Sequence record: PQ657784
Reading direction: 5' to 3' (one strand)
From: Escherichia phage EPIMRB01
DNA length: 64,000 nt
Shown here piece by piece: positions 9,252 through 31,491 of this stretch. The first letter of the stretch is position 1; the number at the start of each line of letters is the position of its first letter. The notes under the pieces are model-generated. The model was not told the origin of the DNA and searched no databases. It was given only the letters and a program-made list of their open reading frames with translations. Made by a program: the position numbers and the translations under genes.

Positions 9252-10571
9252 TCACACATAAAATACGTCATAACGACCACGGGTAACACCAACATAAAGA
9301 AGTTGTTGAGCCAATTCAGCATCTGCATAATGAATACAAGGCGTATAAATGAAAGCACGGTCTACAGACATACCCTGAGCTTTATGGAATGTTGATGCAG
9401 GAAGTGCTTTCACTTTACTAAACTGTGATTTAGCATCCCAAAAATCACTCCACGGGGCTTTTCCGCCTTTGTTCCAATTTTTATAAGTTTCTGCCGTTTT
9501 ACCTAAAAATAGGTTAAACTTATACAATTCTTCATCAGATGAAATTATTTTAATCTTTTCACGATAATATTCATCATCGCCGTAAGTTTCTACTGTTAAA
9601 TCCCAATGACGAATTAAGTATTCTCCAGAAACACCACGAGCTTTAACAAAGGTTGATGTATACTCTGCTTCTATAATACGAACTAATTGTCCGTTATTAA
9701 AAATAATTTCTGACACAGGCTTTCCATCAATTTTATATGTTTTAATTAATGGTTCCTGCATTACAATAATTTCACCGACAATAAAATCTTTATCAGTTTC
9801 AAAAATCTTTTTACGAATAATGCTATTTAACTTATCAACAGATTTATTCGTAAATGCCATTACGCGATTTTCAAACAAATCATCTAGTGATTTGACGATT
9901 GAAAAATAATTTACCATAAAATCGCGTAAAGCGGTATCACCAGTAAATCCACGTACTCCATGCCCGTCAACAACTTTATCATAAATCCACTTACCGTTAC
10001 GAACATCAGTAGCTACATCAATAATAGGAGCATTACTGCGTTTAACTTCAGTAAGTTCACACTGATAAAAATCTTTGTGTGTAAAGAATGGACTGATATA
10101 AGCAGTATTTTCTCCTGGGTCAACAGGTCTAATTTGCTTATTATCGCCTATTCCAATTATAGTACACCACGGTGGGATAGTTGAAAGCAAAATTTTGAAG
10201 AGCTTTCTATCATACATTGACACTTCGTCGCAGATTAATACCCTGCATTTAGCTAAATCTGGTACTTCTTTTTGTTCAAAAAGAACGTTTTCTTCATACG
10301 TAACTGGGTTAATTTTAAGAATACTGTGAATAGTACTCGCTTCTTTCCCCGACAGTTTTGAAAGAATCTTTTTAGCTGCATGAGTAGGAGCTGCTAAAAT
10401 AATACCAGTTTCACCCGTAGATATTAAAGCTTCAATGATGAATTTTGTAAGAGTAGTCTTACCAGTACCAGCAGGTCCATTAATAGTTACATGATGTTTC
10501 TTTTCTTTAATAGCCCTCATAACGATGTTAAAGGCATTTTTCTGGCCTTCTGTCAAATCATCAAATGTCAT
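9252..10571 (-). CDS. dda: Dda DNA helicase (SF1)
   Basis: 439 aa as in T4 Dda; Walker A GPAGTGKT. Confidence 0.95.
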   Translation of the reverse strand: MTFDDLTEGQKNAFNIVMRAIKEKKHHVTINGPAGTGKTTLTKFIIEALISTGETGIILAAPTHAAKKILSKLSGKEASTIHSILKINPVTYEENVLFEQKEVPDLAKCRVLICDEVSMYDRKLFKILLSTIPPWCTIIGIGDNKQIRPVDPGENTAYISPFFTHKDFYQCELTEVKRSNAPIIDVATDVRNGKWIYDKVVDGHGVRGFTGDTALRDFMVNYFSIVKSLDDLFENRVMAFTNKSVDKLNSIIRKKIFETDKDFIVGEIIVMQEPLIKTYKIDGKPVSEIIFNNGQLVRIIEAEYTSTFVKARGVSGEYLIRHWDLTVETYGDDEYYREKIKIISSDEELYKFNLFLGKTAETYKNWNKGGKAPWSDFWDAKSQFSKVKALPASTFHKAQGMSVDRAFIYTPCIHYADAELAQQLLYVGVTRGRYDVFYV

Positions 10572-16001: not shown

Positions 16002-16074
16002 TATTTTTCCTTTCAATTCATGGGTTAGTAGATTAATTATACAATAAATATATAAAGCAATAAGGAGGATATAT

Positions 16075-25134: not shown

Positions 25135-27831
25135 TCAGCCAAACAGGAAGTCTAACGAAGCTTTTTCTTCATAGTCCATACCAGCCGATTCACACATGCC
25201 TGCAAGCGGTTTAACAAACGATTTTTGGAACAAAGTTGAGTAGTCAATCCAAGACAGTACGTCAGAACGAATTTCTTTTGGAAGTTCTGTACCCGATGGC
25301 CAAGCAATGCATTTGTCACCAAATGGATTTCCTTCACGCAATGGAAGAACCATTACTTTATTTCCATCCAAAATTGGAGCTACACCCAGACCACTAACAG
25401 CTCGACGATAAGTTAGCACACCACGAATATGGAACGGACATTTAAATCCTGGCCAACCTTTATCATCATATTTCGCTATATCGTTCGCAGTTTTTACTTC
25501 AGCAATAACTTTATAGTCAAGTTGACGATATTCTTTCTCGAAGTTCTTGTAATATTCTTGGACAGACTCTTCACCTTCCTGAAGAATACGACGAATACTT
25601 TCTTCGAGAGCTTCTTGCACTGCTTTTGGTGTTGAACTCTGCTGAGTTTCCATACCCATGATTTTTAGATGCGGTTCAGCAAATCGTTTATCTTCCATAT
25701 CATAAACGTTCAGAGCATAACGCTTTTTCGCTTTCCAAAATCCACCAACGCCCTTTGAACCAAGTGGAGGGCAAGAAATAGCTTCACGGTCCATATGCAT
25801 CAGATGCTCGCGGTTATTCATATAATCACATAACTCACGATATGCAACATCAATCATAGGTTCCATCTTTTTCTTACCGAACTGATTCATGAATTCAACT
25901 AAATCGTTCTGCTCTTTGAATCGGTCAAGACCAACTTTTTCAATAACTTTATCTACACAAACATATACCGAATCAGTATCACCTGCTGCAATGAAATCTT
26001 CATCGTTAGTTCCGCATACTTTATTCAGATATTCATTAATTTTACGAGCAATCCACTGAATACCAACTTGGCCGAAAATTGTGATAGCAGTAGCATTTCG
26101 CAAATCATAGTAACGGAAATGAATATTACCAAGAGCACCATAAAGACTGTTAATAAGAATTTTACGGTTCAGTTGATTTGTGTTAGCAAGTGTAGCTGCT
26201 TTTTCACATTCTTCAATCAGACTATTGAGAACGGATTCGGTGTAATTCGATAGTTCATTTAAGAAATCATCACTGAACTTAACATATCGTTCAACTTCAG
26301 GTTTAGTTGAACAAGACCCTGCGCCTTTCATAATAATCTTTTTAATAGCTTCGGCATTCATTTCTTCAGCGAACATTTTCTTTTTCCAGTCTTTACGCTG
26401 GAAAAATACTTTAGCGATTTCCTTTGGAATGATACCTTCTTGATGCTTATCATACATCCATCCATTCGGAGAACAAGAATATTCATCACTCGGTTTAGGA
26501 GCTGTTCCTGCGATATATTCATGAATTGGATGAACTTTAAACTGACCACGAATAGTCTCAGGACTAATGTTAACCTGACGAATAATGCTCGGATACAGAG
26601 ACGTCAAGTCAAAACTCATAATATATCGACGAGCAATTGGTTTAGGTTCAAACACAAATGCACCCGGAAAACTCTGTTTAACGTGCGAACCTTGTTGAGG
26701 AATAACCTTATGTTCACCTTTCAATGAGTTAAAAATAATAGCATCCCAGGTTTTAATAGGACTCATTACACCAGAAAAAGGCATTTTAGCGTAATAAGAC
26801 ATACTTAAAACTAGATCGATAAACCCGCGAATTTTATCAATTGCTTGAACTGATTCTACGTCAATGATGTTATAACTAATGTATCGTTGATGATTAGTCT
26901 CACGAAGTTTATTAATAGGACCGTCGTATGGTAATTTACCTTTTTTGGTTTCATGTTGAGCAACTGATTCCAAAGAGAATGACGGCAAATTAGTAAAAGC
27001 AAATTTCTTGTACAAATCTAAATAATCAAGAATAGATACACCATCAATAGAATAAATTTCTTTGCTGCCGTACATGTTTTGAATTAGTTTAGATTTTACT
27101 CGACCAATTGGAGAGAAGCGTTTCATACTACGTTCACCGAGAACCATTTTAACGCGATTCATGATATACGGAACGTCAAATCCCTCAATATTCCAACCAG
27201 TAAAAATAGCAGGTCGTTTCTGTTCCCAGAGATTGATATATTCCATGAGCATATCACGCTCATTATCGAATGGCATATAAATTACTCGGTCAAGAATTTC
27301 TTGAGGAACTTCATCACCACCTTCACAGTCAAGCTTAGCAGCTAACTTTGCATCCCATTTTGATACTGAACCATACATTGAATTCAAAAGGTCGAAAACA
27401 TAAAAACGATCATCAATTGAATCGTAATGAGTGATAGCATCAATTTCATATTCAGCTTTCATTGGGTCAGGAAATTTATCACCAGTAACCTCAATGTCAC
27501 AGTTAGCTACACGAACAAATTTTCGGTCATAAACAATTTCTGAACCATATGTATCACTGATATAAGCGAGTTTAAAATCGTTCATACCGAGAGCTTCGAG
27601 ACCGATGTCTTCCATTCGTTTCATCCAATCTCGAGCATCTTTCATTGATGGAAATTTTTGAGGAGCGCAATTTTTACCATAAATGTCTTTGTACTTTGAC
27701 TCTTCCTTACAATGCCTAAACATAGTCGGAAGATATTCTACTTCACGAGTACGTTCCTTTCCGTTTTCATCAATATAACGTTCAACAATGTTATTTCCGA
27801 CTGTTTCAATAGAGATATAAAATTCTTTCAT
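25135..27831 (-). CDS. 43: DNA polymerase gp43 (family B)
   Basis: 898 aa as T4 gp43; exonuclease and polymerase motifs; operator hairpin upstream. Confidence 0.97.
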   Translation of the reverse strand: MKEFYISIETVGNNIVERYIDENGKERTREVEYLPTMFRHCKEESKYKDIYGKNCAPQKFPSMKDARDWMKRMEDIGLEALGMNDFKLAYISDTYGSEIVYDRKFVRVANCDIEVTGDKFPDPMKAEYEIDAITHYDSIDDRFYVFDLLNSMYGSVSKWDAKLAAKLDCEGGDEVPQEILDRVIYMPFDNERDMLMEYINLWEQKRPAIFTGWNIEGFDVPYIMNRVKMVLGERSMKRFSPIGRVKSKLIQNMYGSKEIYSIDGVSILDYLDLYKKFAFTNLPSFSLESVAQHETKKGKLPYDGPINKLRETNHQRYISYNIIDVESVQAIDKIRGFIDLVLSMSYYAKMPFSGVMSPIKTWDAIIFNSLKGEHKVIPQQGSHVKQSFPGAFVFEPKPIARRYIMSFDLTSLYPSIIRQVNISPETIRGQFKVHPIHEYIAGTAPKPSDEYSCSPNGWMYDKHQEGIIPKEIAKVFFQRKDWKKKMFAEEMNAEAIKKIIMKGAGSCSTKPEVERYVKFSDDFLNELSNYTESVLNSLIEECEKAATLANTNQLNRKILINSLYGALGNIHFRYYDLRNATAITIFGQVGIQWIARKINEYLNKVCGTNDEDFIAAGDTDSVYVCVDKVIEKVGLDRFKEQNDLVEFMNQFGKKKMEPMIDVAYRELCDYMNNREHLMHMDREAISCPPLGSKGVGGFWKAKKRYALNVYDMEDKRFAEPHLKIMGMETQQSSTPKAVQEALEESIRRILQEGEESVQEYYKNFEKEYRQLDYKVIAEVKTANDIAKYDDKGWPGFKCPFHIRGVLTYRRAVSGLGVAPILDGNKVMVLPLREGNPFGDKCIAWPSGTELPKEIRSDVLSWIDYSTLFQKSFVKPLAGMCESAGMDYEEKASLDFLFG

Positions 27832-27834
27832 AGA

Positions 27835-27867
27835 TATTCCTTAGTTTATAGCCCGAGTTATTAGGCT
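27835..27867 (-). promoter_or_regulatory. gene 43 translational operator hairpin plus RBS
   Basis: minus strand AGCCU-AAUAACUC-GGGCU (5-bp stem, 8-nt loop) then AAGGAA SD and ATG; loop matches the classic T4 gp43 operator loop. Confidence 0.75.
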
Positions 27868-27889
27868 CTTGATATATTATACTCCAAAT

Positions 27890-27908
27890 AAGGGGCCGGA
27901 AGCCCCTT
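27890..27908 (-). terminator. terminator-like hairpin downstream of ORF 27914-28150
   Basis: AAGGGGC-UUCCG-GCCCCUU then AUUUGG. Confidence 0.5.
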
Positions 27909-27913
27909 TGCTT

Positions 27914-28150
27914 TTAAATTTCTATTGTATGACGCGATATAACGGACTTGCCATCTTTATTTGTGGTTTTGATAATCGCATGAAATGCGCGTTGGCGTGG
28001 GTAAACTAATCGTTGGAATTCTTTTTGGAATTCTATTTGTTTATCTTCAGGGAGGTCAAAAACCAGTTGGGTAGAAGACAGACCATATGTTTGTTTTAGA
28101 TTTTCGAATATTAGAAAAGCTTCGGTAAACTGAATCTCTGATTGTGTCAT
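27914..28150 (-). CDS. hypothetical protein between regA and gene 43
   Basis: 78 aa from ATG at 28150 with AAGG SD overlapping regA stop; terminator hairpin just downstream. Confidence 0.45.
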   Translation of the reverse strand: MTQSEIQFTEAFLIFENLKQTYGLSSTQLVFDLPEDKQIEFQKEFQRLVYPRQRAFHAIIKTTNKDGKSVISRHTIEI

Positions 28151-28160
28151 ATAATTTACC

Positions 28161-28529
28161 TTAATTACCAATCGTATATTTAGGAACGAGTTTCCATTCA
28201 TGTTTTTGTTTAAAAGAAATAACTCGGAAGTTATTAGTTAAATCTTTCATAAAAGTTCTTTGACCAGGAACGATTTCAATCAGTCCCCAATCTTCTAATA
28301 GCCATGCAATCGAATCACGACGAACTTCATCTTCTTCTGTCATTTCAACTTGGCGACCATCCATACGAAGCATTTCTTTAAAATGAACGATATAGTATAG
28401 TCCTTTTTTCTGAAGAATATGACAGGACTGATACAGAACTTTATCTTTATTATTAGCAATTCCCATACGAGTCAAAGTTTCTTTTACTTTCAGAAAATCT
28501 TCAGGTTTTTTAAGAGTAATTTCAATCAT
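28161..28529 (-). CDS. regA: translational repressor RegA
   Basis: 122 aa as T4 RegA, MIEITLKKPEDFLKV... Confidence 0.9.
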   Translation of the reverse strand: MIEITLKKPEDFLKVKETLTRMGIANNKDKVLYQSCHILQKKGLYYIVHFKEMLRMDGRQVEMTEEDEVRRDSIAWLLEDWGLIEIVPGQRTFMKDLTNNFRVISFKQKHEWKLVPKYTIGN

Positions 28530-28530
28530 T

Positions 28531-29094
28531 TTACCATTCCAATGCTAGTTTTTTGAGTTGTTTCTGTTCTTTTACGTTCTTAGTCACTTCTTTCAAAAAA
28601 TCATCCGTGACTAAACCTTTTAGTTCTTTTAATACTAAAGGTAGTTTTCCATTTTTAGTAAGAATTGATTTATAGTTAATTGCATCATTTGTATTAACTT
28701 GATACCGCTTAGCAAGTAACTTAATAATCAATACTTCGGTGGAATCTTCAACTAGTTTTGCCCATTTACCATATCTTTTACCACGAGGAACTGCAGCCAT
28801 TAGATAATTAAAATGAGCTTCATCACTTAATCCAGAACCGATTAAATTCATAGCATATACAGCTGGCATGCACTCTGGAAATTGTGATAATGCATTTTCA
28901 ACCATGAATTTTGAATAATCTTTTTGAGCAATAGAGCATTTAGTTTTATTATTAATAGCTCCAATTATTTCAAAAAATTCATTTTCAGCTTTTTCTTTAA
29001 AAGTATCAGCAGCAGATTGGACAGCTGTCCAATCTTTTGAATACCAAGCAACTTGATGCTCGTTTAATTGAATATCATCTTCAAATAAGCTCAT
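28531..29094 (-). CDS. 62: clamp loader small subunit gp62
   Basis: 187 aa from ATG at 29094 ([13 protein letters not shown]). Confidence 0.9.
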
Positions 29095-29095
29095 A

Positions 29096-30055
29096 TCACT
29101 TCCACTGCATTTCACATGCTAATTGAATGAAAAGATAAGCTAAATGTAATTCAGTGTTAGCTGCAATACCATGATACTGATTATTTTCGCCGACAATTTC
29201 GTACATACGAATAATACTCTGTGGAGTTACACGTGAATAGATTTCTTCGGCAAGTTTACCCACGAACCACGAATAATCGGCTGCATATTTTGGTGCTAAA
29301 GCTCTGAGTTGTTTAACATCTTTATTTTTGAGAGACTCAAGAACATCATCAATAGCACCACGATCGTTAGTAACCAGTGATAAAATACCAGCATCCAAAA
29401 CACCTTTAGATGAATAACTATCGAGCTCGCCAATAGTTTTACGAAAATCAGGAAAATTCTTTTTAACCAAAGCTGCTACAACTTTCATATCAGCTATAGC
29501 AATACCTTCATGTTTACAGATTTCAGTCAATCGACGAATCATCTGCTTCATCATTTCAATTTTATCTTCATCGGTCGGTTGACCGAACGTAATAACTCGG
29601 CAGCGTGACTGAAGTGGTTTAATAATACCATCAATATTGTTAGCAGTAATAATAATACTACAGTTTGAACTATAAGCTTCCATAAAGGAACGAAGATGTC
29701 GCTGAGACTCTGCTAATCCTGAACGGTCAAATTCATCAATAACGATTACTTTTTGACGACCATCAAATGAAGCTGCACTCGCAAAATTAGTTAAAGGACC
29801 ACGAACGAAATCAATTTTACAATCTGATCCATTCACAAACATCATGTCAGCATTTACATCATGGCACAATGCTTTTGCCACAGTTGTTTTACCTGTTCCT
29901 GGAGAAGGAGAATGAAGAATAATATGTGGAATCTTACCTTTACTTGTAATAGATTTAAAGGTTTCTTTATCAAAGGCGGGAAGAATACATTCATCGATAG
30001 TAGATGGACGATATTTCTGTTCAAGAATGTGTTCTTTTTCATTTACGGTAATCAT
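29096..30055 (-). CDS. 44: clamp loader large subunit gp44 (AAA+)
   Basis: 319 aa from MITVNEKEH; Walker A SPGTGKTT. Confidence 0.95.
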
Positions 30056-30089
30056 AATTTCCTCATTCAAGTTTTAGTGTAAATTATAA

Positions 30090-30106: not shown

Positions 30107-30793
30107 TTAAAAATCGTGGGTAGAATCAGCTTCAAGAGCTACTACATAATTCGCGTGTTCACCTTCAAATTTAGCAGCACCTTGTTTACCTTTTGCCCAG
30201 AGCAGAAGTTTATAATTTCCTGGTTGCATTTTCATATTTGCCATATTGATAATGAAATTAAATGTATTTTCACCATCATAATCACCAAGAGTCAAAGAAT
30301 ATTTAACACGGGTCAGAGCAGAATCTTCTACTTTATTAAAACCGTTAATTACGATTTTACCTTCTTTTACCGTGATAGCAATTGTATCAATCTGCAGACC
30401 ACGAGATACACGCAACAGTTGTTGAAGGTCTTCAGCTTTAATTTCAGTAACAACAGATGCTACCGGGAATGGAATTGGTTTATTAGGAGCAACTACTGTA
30501 CTCGGATCGGCTGCTGGCCAAAAAATTGTTGAGCGGGCATCAGCAATTTTAATATTTCCATCTTCTGACTGAGAAATTTCTGCATCATCATTAACTAAAG
30601 ACAGAATACCGAGAAAACCGTTCAAATCGTAAATTGCTACATCAAAATCAATAACGTCAGAAATATTTGCTTCCGCATAAGTTGTACCATTAACTGCGCG
30701 AGTCATAATAAATTGACCGGATTTAAGCATAATACCAGAGTTAATAGTAGCGAAATTTTTCAGCAGAGCAGTAGTATCTTTAGACAGTTTCAT
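30107..30793 (-). CDS. 45: sliding clamp gp45
   Basis: 228 aa as T4 gp45. Confidence 0.95.
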   Translation of the reverse strand: MKLSKDTTALLKNFATINSGIMLKSGQFIMTRAVNGTTYAEANISDVIDFDVAIYDLNGFLGILSLVNDDAEISQSEDGNIKIADARSTIFWPAADPSTVVAPNKPIPFPVASVVTEIKAEDLQQLLRVSRGLQIDTIAITVKEGKIVINGFNKVEDSALTRVKYSLTLGDYDGENTFNFIINMANMKMQPGNYKLLLWAKGKQGAAKFEGEHANYVVALEADSTHDF

Positions 30794-30822
30794 GTAATTT
30801 CCTTCAATTCAAATGAGATTTA

Positions 30823-30847
30823 ATTTTATAACTAATTTAATAAAGCA
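30823..30847 (-). promoter_or_regulatory. MotA-dependent middle promoter upstream of gene 45
   Basis: minus strand TGCTTTA, 12-nt spacer, TAAAAT. Confidence 0.45.
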
Positions 30848-31436: not shown

Positions 31437-31491
31437 GTTTTTCCTCCATAGAGATTATACTCTAATAAATTAAAGCATAATCTCTTATAAA

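Follow-up and report, generated by a model that had tools for sequence, protein, structure and literature searches.

In bacteriophage T4 (NC_000866), regA and gene 43 are separated by a spacer of 78 nt in which no ORF is annotated, whereas the corresponding spacer of Escherichia phage EPIMRB01 measures 329 nt and accommodates an ORF of 78 amino acids. This locus raises the questions of what the ORF is, how it came to be present in one phage and absent from the other, and whether the signals through which the gene 43 product (gp43) controls its own synthesis have been affected. The 64,000-nt stretch of EPIMRB01 DNA analyzed here (sequence record PQ657784; hereafter, the window) had been given an initial annotation in which the ORF was taken to be an extra gene inserted into the T4 arrangement. 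The absence of a gene at this position in T4 is borne out, but the ORF itself is orf43.1. This small accessory gene belongs to the T-even-type phages (Tevenvirinae) and was recorded decades ago. The gene was reportedly first described by Miller and Jozwik in 1990 (J Bacteriol 172:5180), as the ‘conserved regA and variable orf43.1’ of T4-like bacteriophages. The identity of the gene, the organization of the locus, and the population picture described below are, taken jointly, held with high confidence.

Organization of the regA–43 Junction

The genes concerned lie on the minus strand, in the order rpbA–45–44–62–regA–[orf43.1]–43 according to the ORF list, which is the classical T4 order, and positions 27700–28300 of the window are 100% identical to Escherichia phage AUBRB02. 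The translational repressor gene regA (28161–28529, minus strand), recognized from the ORF list and from the regA annotations of AUBRB02, G50, and RB51, shares 98.9% nucleotide identity with T4 regA. Its stop codon UAA (28163–28161) overlaps, within the hexamer UAAGGU, the Shine–Dalgarno sequence of orf43.1 (AAGGU, 28162–28158, minus strand, 7 nt from the ATG), and the initiation region of orf43.1, UAAGGUAAAUUAUAUGA, is A+U-rich. The allele of orf43.1 carried by the window, which is of the RB51 type and was assigned by its translation and its Pfam and phrog matches, occupies 27914–28150 on the minus strand (stop codon included); it starts with an ATG at 28150, 10 nt past the regA stop, ends with TAA at 27916–27914, and encodes a product of 78 amino acids (MTQSEIQF...RHTIEI) with a mass of 9.2 kDa and a pI of 6.7. 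A 95-amino-acid ORF starting from an ATG at 28201 was rejected as an artefact, its first 17 codons overlapping the 3′ end of regA in another frame; Prodigal-based annotations pick the 78-amino-acid form and not the 95-amino-acid form.

A GC-rich, terminator-like hairpin (AAGGGGC-UUCCG-GCCCCUU, 27908–27890, minus strand) begins 5 nt after the orf43.1 stop, as given by the minimum-free-energy fold and by the annotation of G50. The alignments place a −10-like hexamer, TATAAT (27876–27881, minus strand), between this hairpin and the translational operator hairpin of gene 43, AGCCU-AAUAACUC-GGGCU (27867–27850, minus strand), which is identical to that of T4. The gene 43 Shine–Dalgarno sequence AAGGA (27842–27838, minus strand) and the gene 43 ATG at 27831 follow, and gene 43 itself (25135–27831, minus strand; ORF list), which encodes the DNA polymerase of 898 amino acids, is 98.2% identical to T4 at the nucleotide level over its first 600 nt. 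The ORF with its own Shine–Dalgarno sequence at the regA stop, upstream of the operator, was correctly described in the initial annotation, and all of these elements were located on the minus strand. When aligned with T4, the window corresponds to the T4 sequence with some 250 nt added precisely between the stop codon of regA and the GC-rich hairpin; little or no difference separates the two phages in that hairpin, the TATAAT hexamer, the 18-nt operator hairpin, and the ribosome-binding site, and the identity is complete from the 3′ arm of the hairpin to gene 43. No Rfam RNA family was matched in 27600–28400.

Identification of the ORF as orf43.1

The ORF product matches the Pfam family PF25760, “Phage RB18 ORF43.1 protein”, with an E-value of 5.4e-31 and a score of 106.7 bits (cut-off 27), and the match spans positions 3–69 of the 69 positions in the profile. 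No other family, and no endonuclease domain, was reported in this Pfam search at E ≤ 10. A second match was to phrog_3826, a family of unknown function. In RB51, the same CDS is annotated in the same place and described as ‘similar to RB18 43.1’, and its product, RB51 ORF050, is likewise encoded between regA and 43, equals the window protein in size, and is 98.7% identical to it; the annotation of ime09 at this site reads ‘gp43.1 uncharacterized protein ORF43.1, in regA3′ region’. The window differs from RB51, G50, and REP1 only trivially, by the replacement of an arginine by His74 and by two single-base homopolymer differences, an apparent extra A just 3′ of the stop, at 27910–27913, and an apparent extra C in the hairpin loop. 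The score above the Pfam threshold, the position between regA and 43, and the length within the range of about 70–85 amino acids, with the conserved core and the C-terminal ...R-T-I-E-I, identify the window ORF as a member of the ORF43.1 family.

The supposition that the ORF had not been known at this site is thus contradicted by the annotations of the reference genomes RB51 and ime09 and by a Pfam family that is named after orf43.1. As a discovery, the ORF carries little weight, since what it is, where it lies, and how it varies have long been recorded and are represented in Pfam, PHROGs, and GenBank.

Distribution and Allelic States of orf43.1

A clean census of the locus was obtained from 502 T4-like records that match the flanks at ≥95%. 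The contiguous, ORF-less T4 junction is found in 256 of the 502 records (~51%), T2 and T4 included; an RB18/ime09-type allele is found in 178 (~35%), and the RB51-type allele of the window, as defined by >90% identity, in 68 (~14%). The RB51-type phages include RB51, wV7, and AUBRB02. These three states of the locus add up exactly to 502 (68 + 178 + 256).

The RB18/ime09-type protein (gp43.1 of ime09, a hypothetical protein in RB32) belongs to the same locus and the same family as the window allele, and shares with it the YxL-T-FDL-E-Q-FQ core, the C-terminal β-hairpin, and the downstream hairpin and operator. However, the two types have only ~43–47% protein identity, and blastn detects no DNA similarity between them. 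The RB18/ime09 type lacks the N-terminal extension of ~6 amino acids found in the RB51 type and has no separate Shine–Dalgarno sequence, its ATG lying 1 nt past the regA stop. The same 1-nt distance is seen in VR7 as well as in ime09, and the orf43.1 ATG of Moon and KM16 overlaps the regA stop.

In a tblastn search, 318 records carried an orf43.1 homologue. Direct inspection of ime09 (Tequatrovirus), VR7 (Gaprivervirus), and the two Moonvirus phages Moon and KM16 placed the homologue between regA and 43 in each, the synteny in KM16, an unannotated record, being read from the order of its ORFs; two metagenomic relatives show the order rpbA–45–44–62–regA–orf43.1–43–imm. Dhakavirus JS98 gave a match to orf43.1 at the DNA level, and RB69 (Mosigvirus) is without orf43.1 and has a regA–43 spacer of 81 nt. 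A profile search of 5.8 billion proteins returned only 33 clusters, and 1.84 billion representatives, scanned exhaustively with HMMER, gave 10 matches, eight of which are short family members; the two long, repetitive matches (P0037 and P0039) were judged to be compositional false positives. The ORF43.1 family is a small one, restricted to T4-like phages in the sequences sampled.

Coding Evidence and Predicted Fold

In an alignment of 30 diverse members of the family, all sequences have an unbroken reading frame and are 71–85 amino acids long. Eight columns are invariant in these sequences (L18, Y22, L24, F31, D32, L33, E35, and I78) and nine more are nearly invariant (G23, T27, Q38, E40, F41, Q42, I71, R73, and E77). 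Between alleles, synonymous sites are saturated (pS of 0.69–0.89, with pN of 0.28–0.52), and in the close pair of Moon and KM16, 12 synonymous and 3 non-synonymous differences correspond to a dN/dS of 0.05. Across genera, orf43.1 is conserved as a protein, while its DNA has diverged to near-random identity. A repeat search found a 12-nt tandem duplication (TTGGAATTCTTT / TTGGAATTCTAT) inside orf43.1 at 28013–28036, encoding the EFQK/EFQR of helix 2; REP1 lacks 12 nt at this duplication and NBEco003, seen as a protein, lacks 4 amino acids, both in frame. These alignments indicate that orf43.1 is a real protein-coding gene under purifying selection.

The AlphaFold2 model of Orf43.1, built on this alignment, has a pLDDT of 93.2 and a pTM of 0.80, and consists of a helix (residues 3–21), an ordered conserved loop, a second helix (35–49), and a β-hairpin (55–63/69–77). 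Orf43.1 proteins range from 8.4 to 9.2 kDa and are near-neutral to acidic, with pI values of 4.8–6.7. That the protein is made in infected cells is supported indirectly, by the Shine–Dalgarno sequence, the purifying selection, and the confidently predicted fold.

RNA Elements of the Spacer and the Gene 43 Operator

A GC-rich hairpin lies directly 3′ of regA in T4 (GGUAAUUAA-GCAAGGGGCUUCGGCCCC), and likewise follows regA in RB69. The terminator-like hairpin that the initial annotation assigned to the end of the ORF is indeed present just past its stop, but it is not the ORF's own. Its loop is UUCCG in the window and a UUCG tetraloop in T4 and the other aligned phages. A consensus fold of the spacer, based on nine phages that represent four genera or more and include both carriers and non-carriers of orf43.1, recovers both the GC-rich hairpin and the operator hairpin. 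Three pairs of the operator stem show compensatory changes on both sides (G-C/A-U, G-C/C-G/A-U, and C-G/U-A/A-U), and one pair of the GC-rich stem does so (G-C in T4, A-U in VR7, and C-G in Moon), the UUCG loop being otherwise invariant. This covariation, together with the presence of both hairpins in ORF-less phages, points to the two hairpins as structural elements of the phage backbone. The TATAAT hexamer is kept in T4, ime09, VR7, RB69, and the metagenomic relatives.

The GC-rich stem is strong, with 5 G-C pairs plus A-U pairs, and on the coding strand it is followed by a weak U-tract, UUAUUUGG; a terminator pattern scan called the hairpin on the plus strand only and not on the coding strand, and G50 annotates it as a terminator. 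The hairpin may be regarded as a putative terminator that closes the regA/orf43.1 unit.

The operator AGCCUAAUAACUCGGGCU at 27867–27850 has a 5-bp stem and an 8-nt loop containing UAAC, and the sequence is identical to that of T4 through to the ATG. According to the review by Uzan and Miller (PMC3014915), the gp43 operator is an 18-nt hairpin that has a UAAC loop and adjoins the gene 43 ribosome-binding site. Given the identity of the operator with that of T4 and the 98.2% identity of the first 600 nt of gene 43, gp43 is expected to bind the window operator and to repress translation there. The initial annotation had noted that the operator hairpin is preserved, and the operator and the ribosome-binding site do agree with T4 base for base; as both are unchanged, polymerase autoregulation would be independent of whether orf43.1 is present.

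Expression of orf43.1 and Possible Control by RegA

The pattern of a MotA-box middle promoter has no match in 27832–28700; on the coding strand, the closest one lies upstream of gene 45, and neither a sigma-70 nor a MotA-type promoter match was found upstream of orf43.1 on the coding strand. The sole sigma-70-like match on the minus strand lies inside orf43.1. The lack of a nearby MotA match fits a model in which orf43.1 is the last cistron of a transcription unit that carries regA, and this unit would end at the GC-rich hairpin. In the RB51 type, the regA stop is embedded in the orf43.1 Shine–Dalgarno sequence, and in the other alleles the ATG lies 1 nt beyond the stop or overlaps it, so that translation of orf43.1 would be closely coupled to that of regA.

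Translation of orf43.1 may itself be under RegA repression. RegA sites are unstructured and A+U-rich and have a 5′ A-tract that lies at the AUG or overlaps it, and a UAA that belongs to the upstream gene and falls inside the ribosome-binding site may contribute (PMC3014915). When the orf43.1 start region AAAUUAUAUGA is compared with those of the RegA-repressed genes 44 (AAAUUAUGA) and 45 (AAAUUACAUGA), AAAUUAU...AUGA is common to all three, and the ribosome-binding site of orf43.1 contains the UAA of the upstream gene, regA. Repression by RegA is plausible on this resemblance, although the motif is loose and RegA-like start regions are common in this AT-rich genome.

Allele Exchange and the Direction of Change

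Within the genus, the window and ime09 are 95–98% identical at the nucleotide level over the flanks (the 3′ end of 62, regA, the spacer, and the 5′ end of 43), whereas orf43.1 has only 55.7% nucleotide identity. The comparison with VR7, which belongs to another genus, gives 64–73% nucleotide identity for the flanks and 61.6% for orf43.1, so that between genera orf43.1 diverges only slightly faster than its neighbors. This between-genera divergence roughly tracks the flanks, which is what vertical descent would produce. Within the T4 genus, two alleles whose age matches that of the genera themselves are set within near-identical flanks and bear the signature of allele exchange, which would have proceeded by homologous recombination in regA and in the hairpin and operator sequences.

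The T4 junction is the ime09 sequence minus exactly the orf43.1 cistron. The end of regA (GGTAATTAA) and the end of the ime09 ORF (ATTAATTTAA) share TAATT(T)AA, with an exact microhomology of only 4 nt (TTAA); no flanking repeats beyond this TTAA, and no integrase or homing endonuclease, were found adjoining orf43.1. As orf43.1 is syntenic across genera and its divergence roughly follows that of the flanks, parsimony favors loss in T4 and RB69 over repeated gain; with RB69 devoid of orf43.1 as well, either direction calls for two events or more. By parsimony, T4 most likely lost orf43.1 through a clean deletion, rather than the gene having been gained elsewhere. The direction of the story is thereby corrected, with the reference T4 representing the state without the gene.

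The initial annotation had proposed that an insertion left autoregulation intact; the operator signals are indeed untouched, but the word insertion probably has the direction wrong in view of the synteny across genera. A novel ORF inserted into the T4 spacer as a recently acquired ‘moron’ that brought its own Shine–Dalgarno sequence and terminator, would account for the absence of the ORF from T4, for the Shine–Dalgarno sequence that the ORF possesses, and for flanks that are 98–99% identical to T4. This account is nevertheless very unlikely, because 68 records contain the same gene and another 178 a second allele of it, its synteny extends to other genera, Pfam and GenBank already list it by name, and the hairpin pre-exists in T4 and RB69, so that nothing was ‘brought’. 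The flanks also lack repeats, an integrase, and a homing endonuclease, and the features by which a mobile insertion is recognized (an endonuclease domain, a promoter and terminator of its own, and flanking repeats) are absent from orf43.1. Even less probable, and hardly credible on the present alignments, is that orf43.1 is a decaying, non-functional remnant or a chance ORF in a region where only the surrounding RNA elements matter. Such a gene could be dispensable, as orf43.1 is in T4, RB69, and the 256 ORF-less records, and its alleles could be as highly diverged and as devoid of known function as those observed; however, the frame would not be expected to stay intact over 71–85 amino acids in 30 diverse sequences, with a dN/dS far under 1, indels in frame, the motifs Y22, L24, F31-D32-L33, and E35 invariant, and a confident and consistent fold, and no Rfam RNA family was found in the region. 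The preferred reading remains that of an old, vertically inherited gene, exchanged between alleles and probably lost from T4.

Function of Orf43.1

Searches for relatives of known function gave no informative match. A sequence profile search of the PDB returned nothing meaningful (best E-value 0.79), PADLOC gave no match, NCBIfam gave only a sub-threshold chance match, and a Foldseek search of the model against the PDB had a best E-value of 0.11, with none at E ≤ 0.001. In BFVD, only family members, Edwardsiella phage PEi26 (26% identity), and other uncharacterized phage proteins were found, and the structure searches revealed no likeness to RNA-binding, DNA-binding, or clamp-binding proteins. 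The T4 gp45-binding motif is (S/T)LDFL and the clamp-binding consensus is QL[SD]LF. A clamp-binding reading of the TQxxFDL segment was rejected, as the segment fits neither of these motifs and the model places it in a well-ordered loop. Orf43.1 is predicted to be a soluble protein of 8–9 kDa with two helices and a β-hairpin, too small for an enzyme and without enzyme-like features, and probably dispensable. A confidently modeled protein that is conserved across genera within the best-studied phage gene cluster, and for which no function and no structural relatives were found, makes a cheap target for functional study.

Orf43.1 would be made early or middle in infection, alongside the replication proteins, and would act by binding a partner. 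One candidate role is to serve RegA, or else gp43 and the replication machinery, as a dedicated partner or modulator, which would suit the strict regA–43 synteny in every relative examined that carries orf43.1, the start codon placed 1 nt past or overlapping the regA stop in most alleles, and the location of the gene within the 45–44–62–regA–43 replication cluster. Nevertheless, this role is doubtful. The RegA protein is identical in the window and ime09 despite their different orf43.1 alleles, whereas a specific partner should co-vary; the regA DNA is 98.9% identical to that of the ORF-less T4, and gene 43, over its first 600 nt, is also 96–98% identical whichever orf43.1 state adjoins. About half of the genus, moreover, does without orf43.1, and the protein has no structural likeness to RNA-, DNA-, or clamp-binding proteins. 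As RegA and gp43 are near-invariant beside either allele or none, a partner outside the cluster is favored, more likely a variable component of the host or of a competitor than RegA or gp43; that Orf43.1 binds such a variable partner is suggested by the allele pattern, at low confidence, and relaxed constraint plus recombination would yield the same pattern.

A more elaborate version, in which the locus would be a three-state balanced polymorphism of two ancient alleles and a null, encoding a host- or competitor-facing factor whose dose is set by coupling to RegA translation and by repression, is speculative and rather improbable; its basis is the pattern of alleles, together with purifying selection inside each allele and a start region that resembles RegA targets. 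Examples of a host- or competitor-facing factor include an inhibitor of a variable bacterial defense and an inter-phage exclusion function.

Variation at the orf43.1 locus

RB69, a member of the Mosigvirus genus, does not contain orf43.1, and its regA–43 spacer of 81 nt retains the UUCG hairpin, the TATAAT hexamer, and the gene 43 operator (L008, the RB69 sequence, 9352-9432); the ORF-less state of the locus is therefore found in at least two genera. The removal of exactly the orf43.1 cistron from the ime09 sequence (L004 655-895) yields the regA–43 junction of T4 (L001 5960-5985). The 3' end of regA (GGTAATTAA) and the 3' end of ime09 orf43.1 (ATTAATTTAA) have TAATT(T)AA in common, a shared stretch that could possibly have served as microhomology for the deletion of orf43.1.

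The EFQK/EFQR repeat in helix 2 of the Orf43.1 protein is encoded by a 12-nt tandem duplication within the gene (28013-28036; copies TTGGAATTCTTT and TTGGAATTCTAT), and an EcoRI site is present in each copy. REP1 lacks 12 nt, or four amino acids, at this position in both DNA and protein, and NBEco003 lacks four amino acids at the protein level, in frame in both cases, a pattern that points to slippage during replication, by which the helix becomes approximately one turn shorter and the gene survives.

The alignment with the RB51-type phages RB51, G50, and REP1 reveals two single-base homopolymer insertions just 3' of orf43.1 in the window: an additional A after the stop codon (27910-27913; UUUAAAAGC versus UUUAAAGC), and an additional C (27897-27899) that converts the otherwise invariant UUCG tetraloop to UUCCG. 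Codon 74 of Orf43.1 (27929-27931) encodes His in the window and Arg in the other aligned RB51-type phages. The insertions and His74 could be genuine variants, or they could stem from homopolymer errors of the AUBRB02 assembly.

Regulatory sequences

The start regions of gene 44 (GGAAAUUAUGA; 30053-30075, minus strand) and gene 45 (GGAAAUUACAUGA; 30791-30812, minus strand), both classical targets of RegA, are very similar to that of orf43.1 (GGUAAAUUAUAUGA; 28148-28166, minus strand), and on the basis of this likeness the orf43.1 message may be repressed by RegA.

Whether SELEX-variant loops occur in natural operators is a question raised previously (PMC3014915). The Gaprivervirus-type gene 43 operator (VR7, L005 945-962; a second sequence, L012 3296-3316) has a stem of 4 bp (AGUC/GACU), and its loop, AAUCACUC, contains UCAC in place of the UAAC of the T4 operator; this loop is neither UAAC nor CAAC.

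Across the whole window, the MotA-box-type middle-promoter pattern (TGCTTNA, 10-14 nt, TANNNT) has 20 matches, compared with 7.5 expected from shuffles. Among the matches, exemplified by 30823-30847, 31452-31477, and 16036-16059 (all minus strand), some lie upstream of gene 45 and upstream of 45.2/rpbA, as is expected for a T4-type genome.
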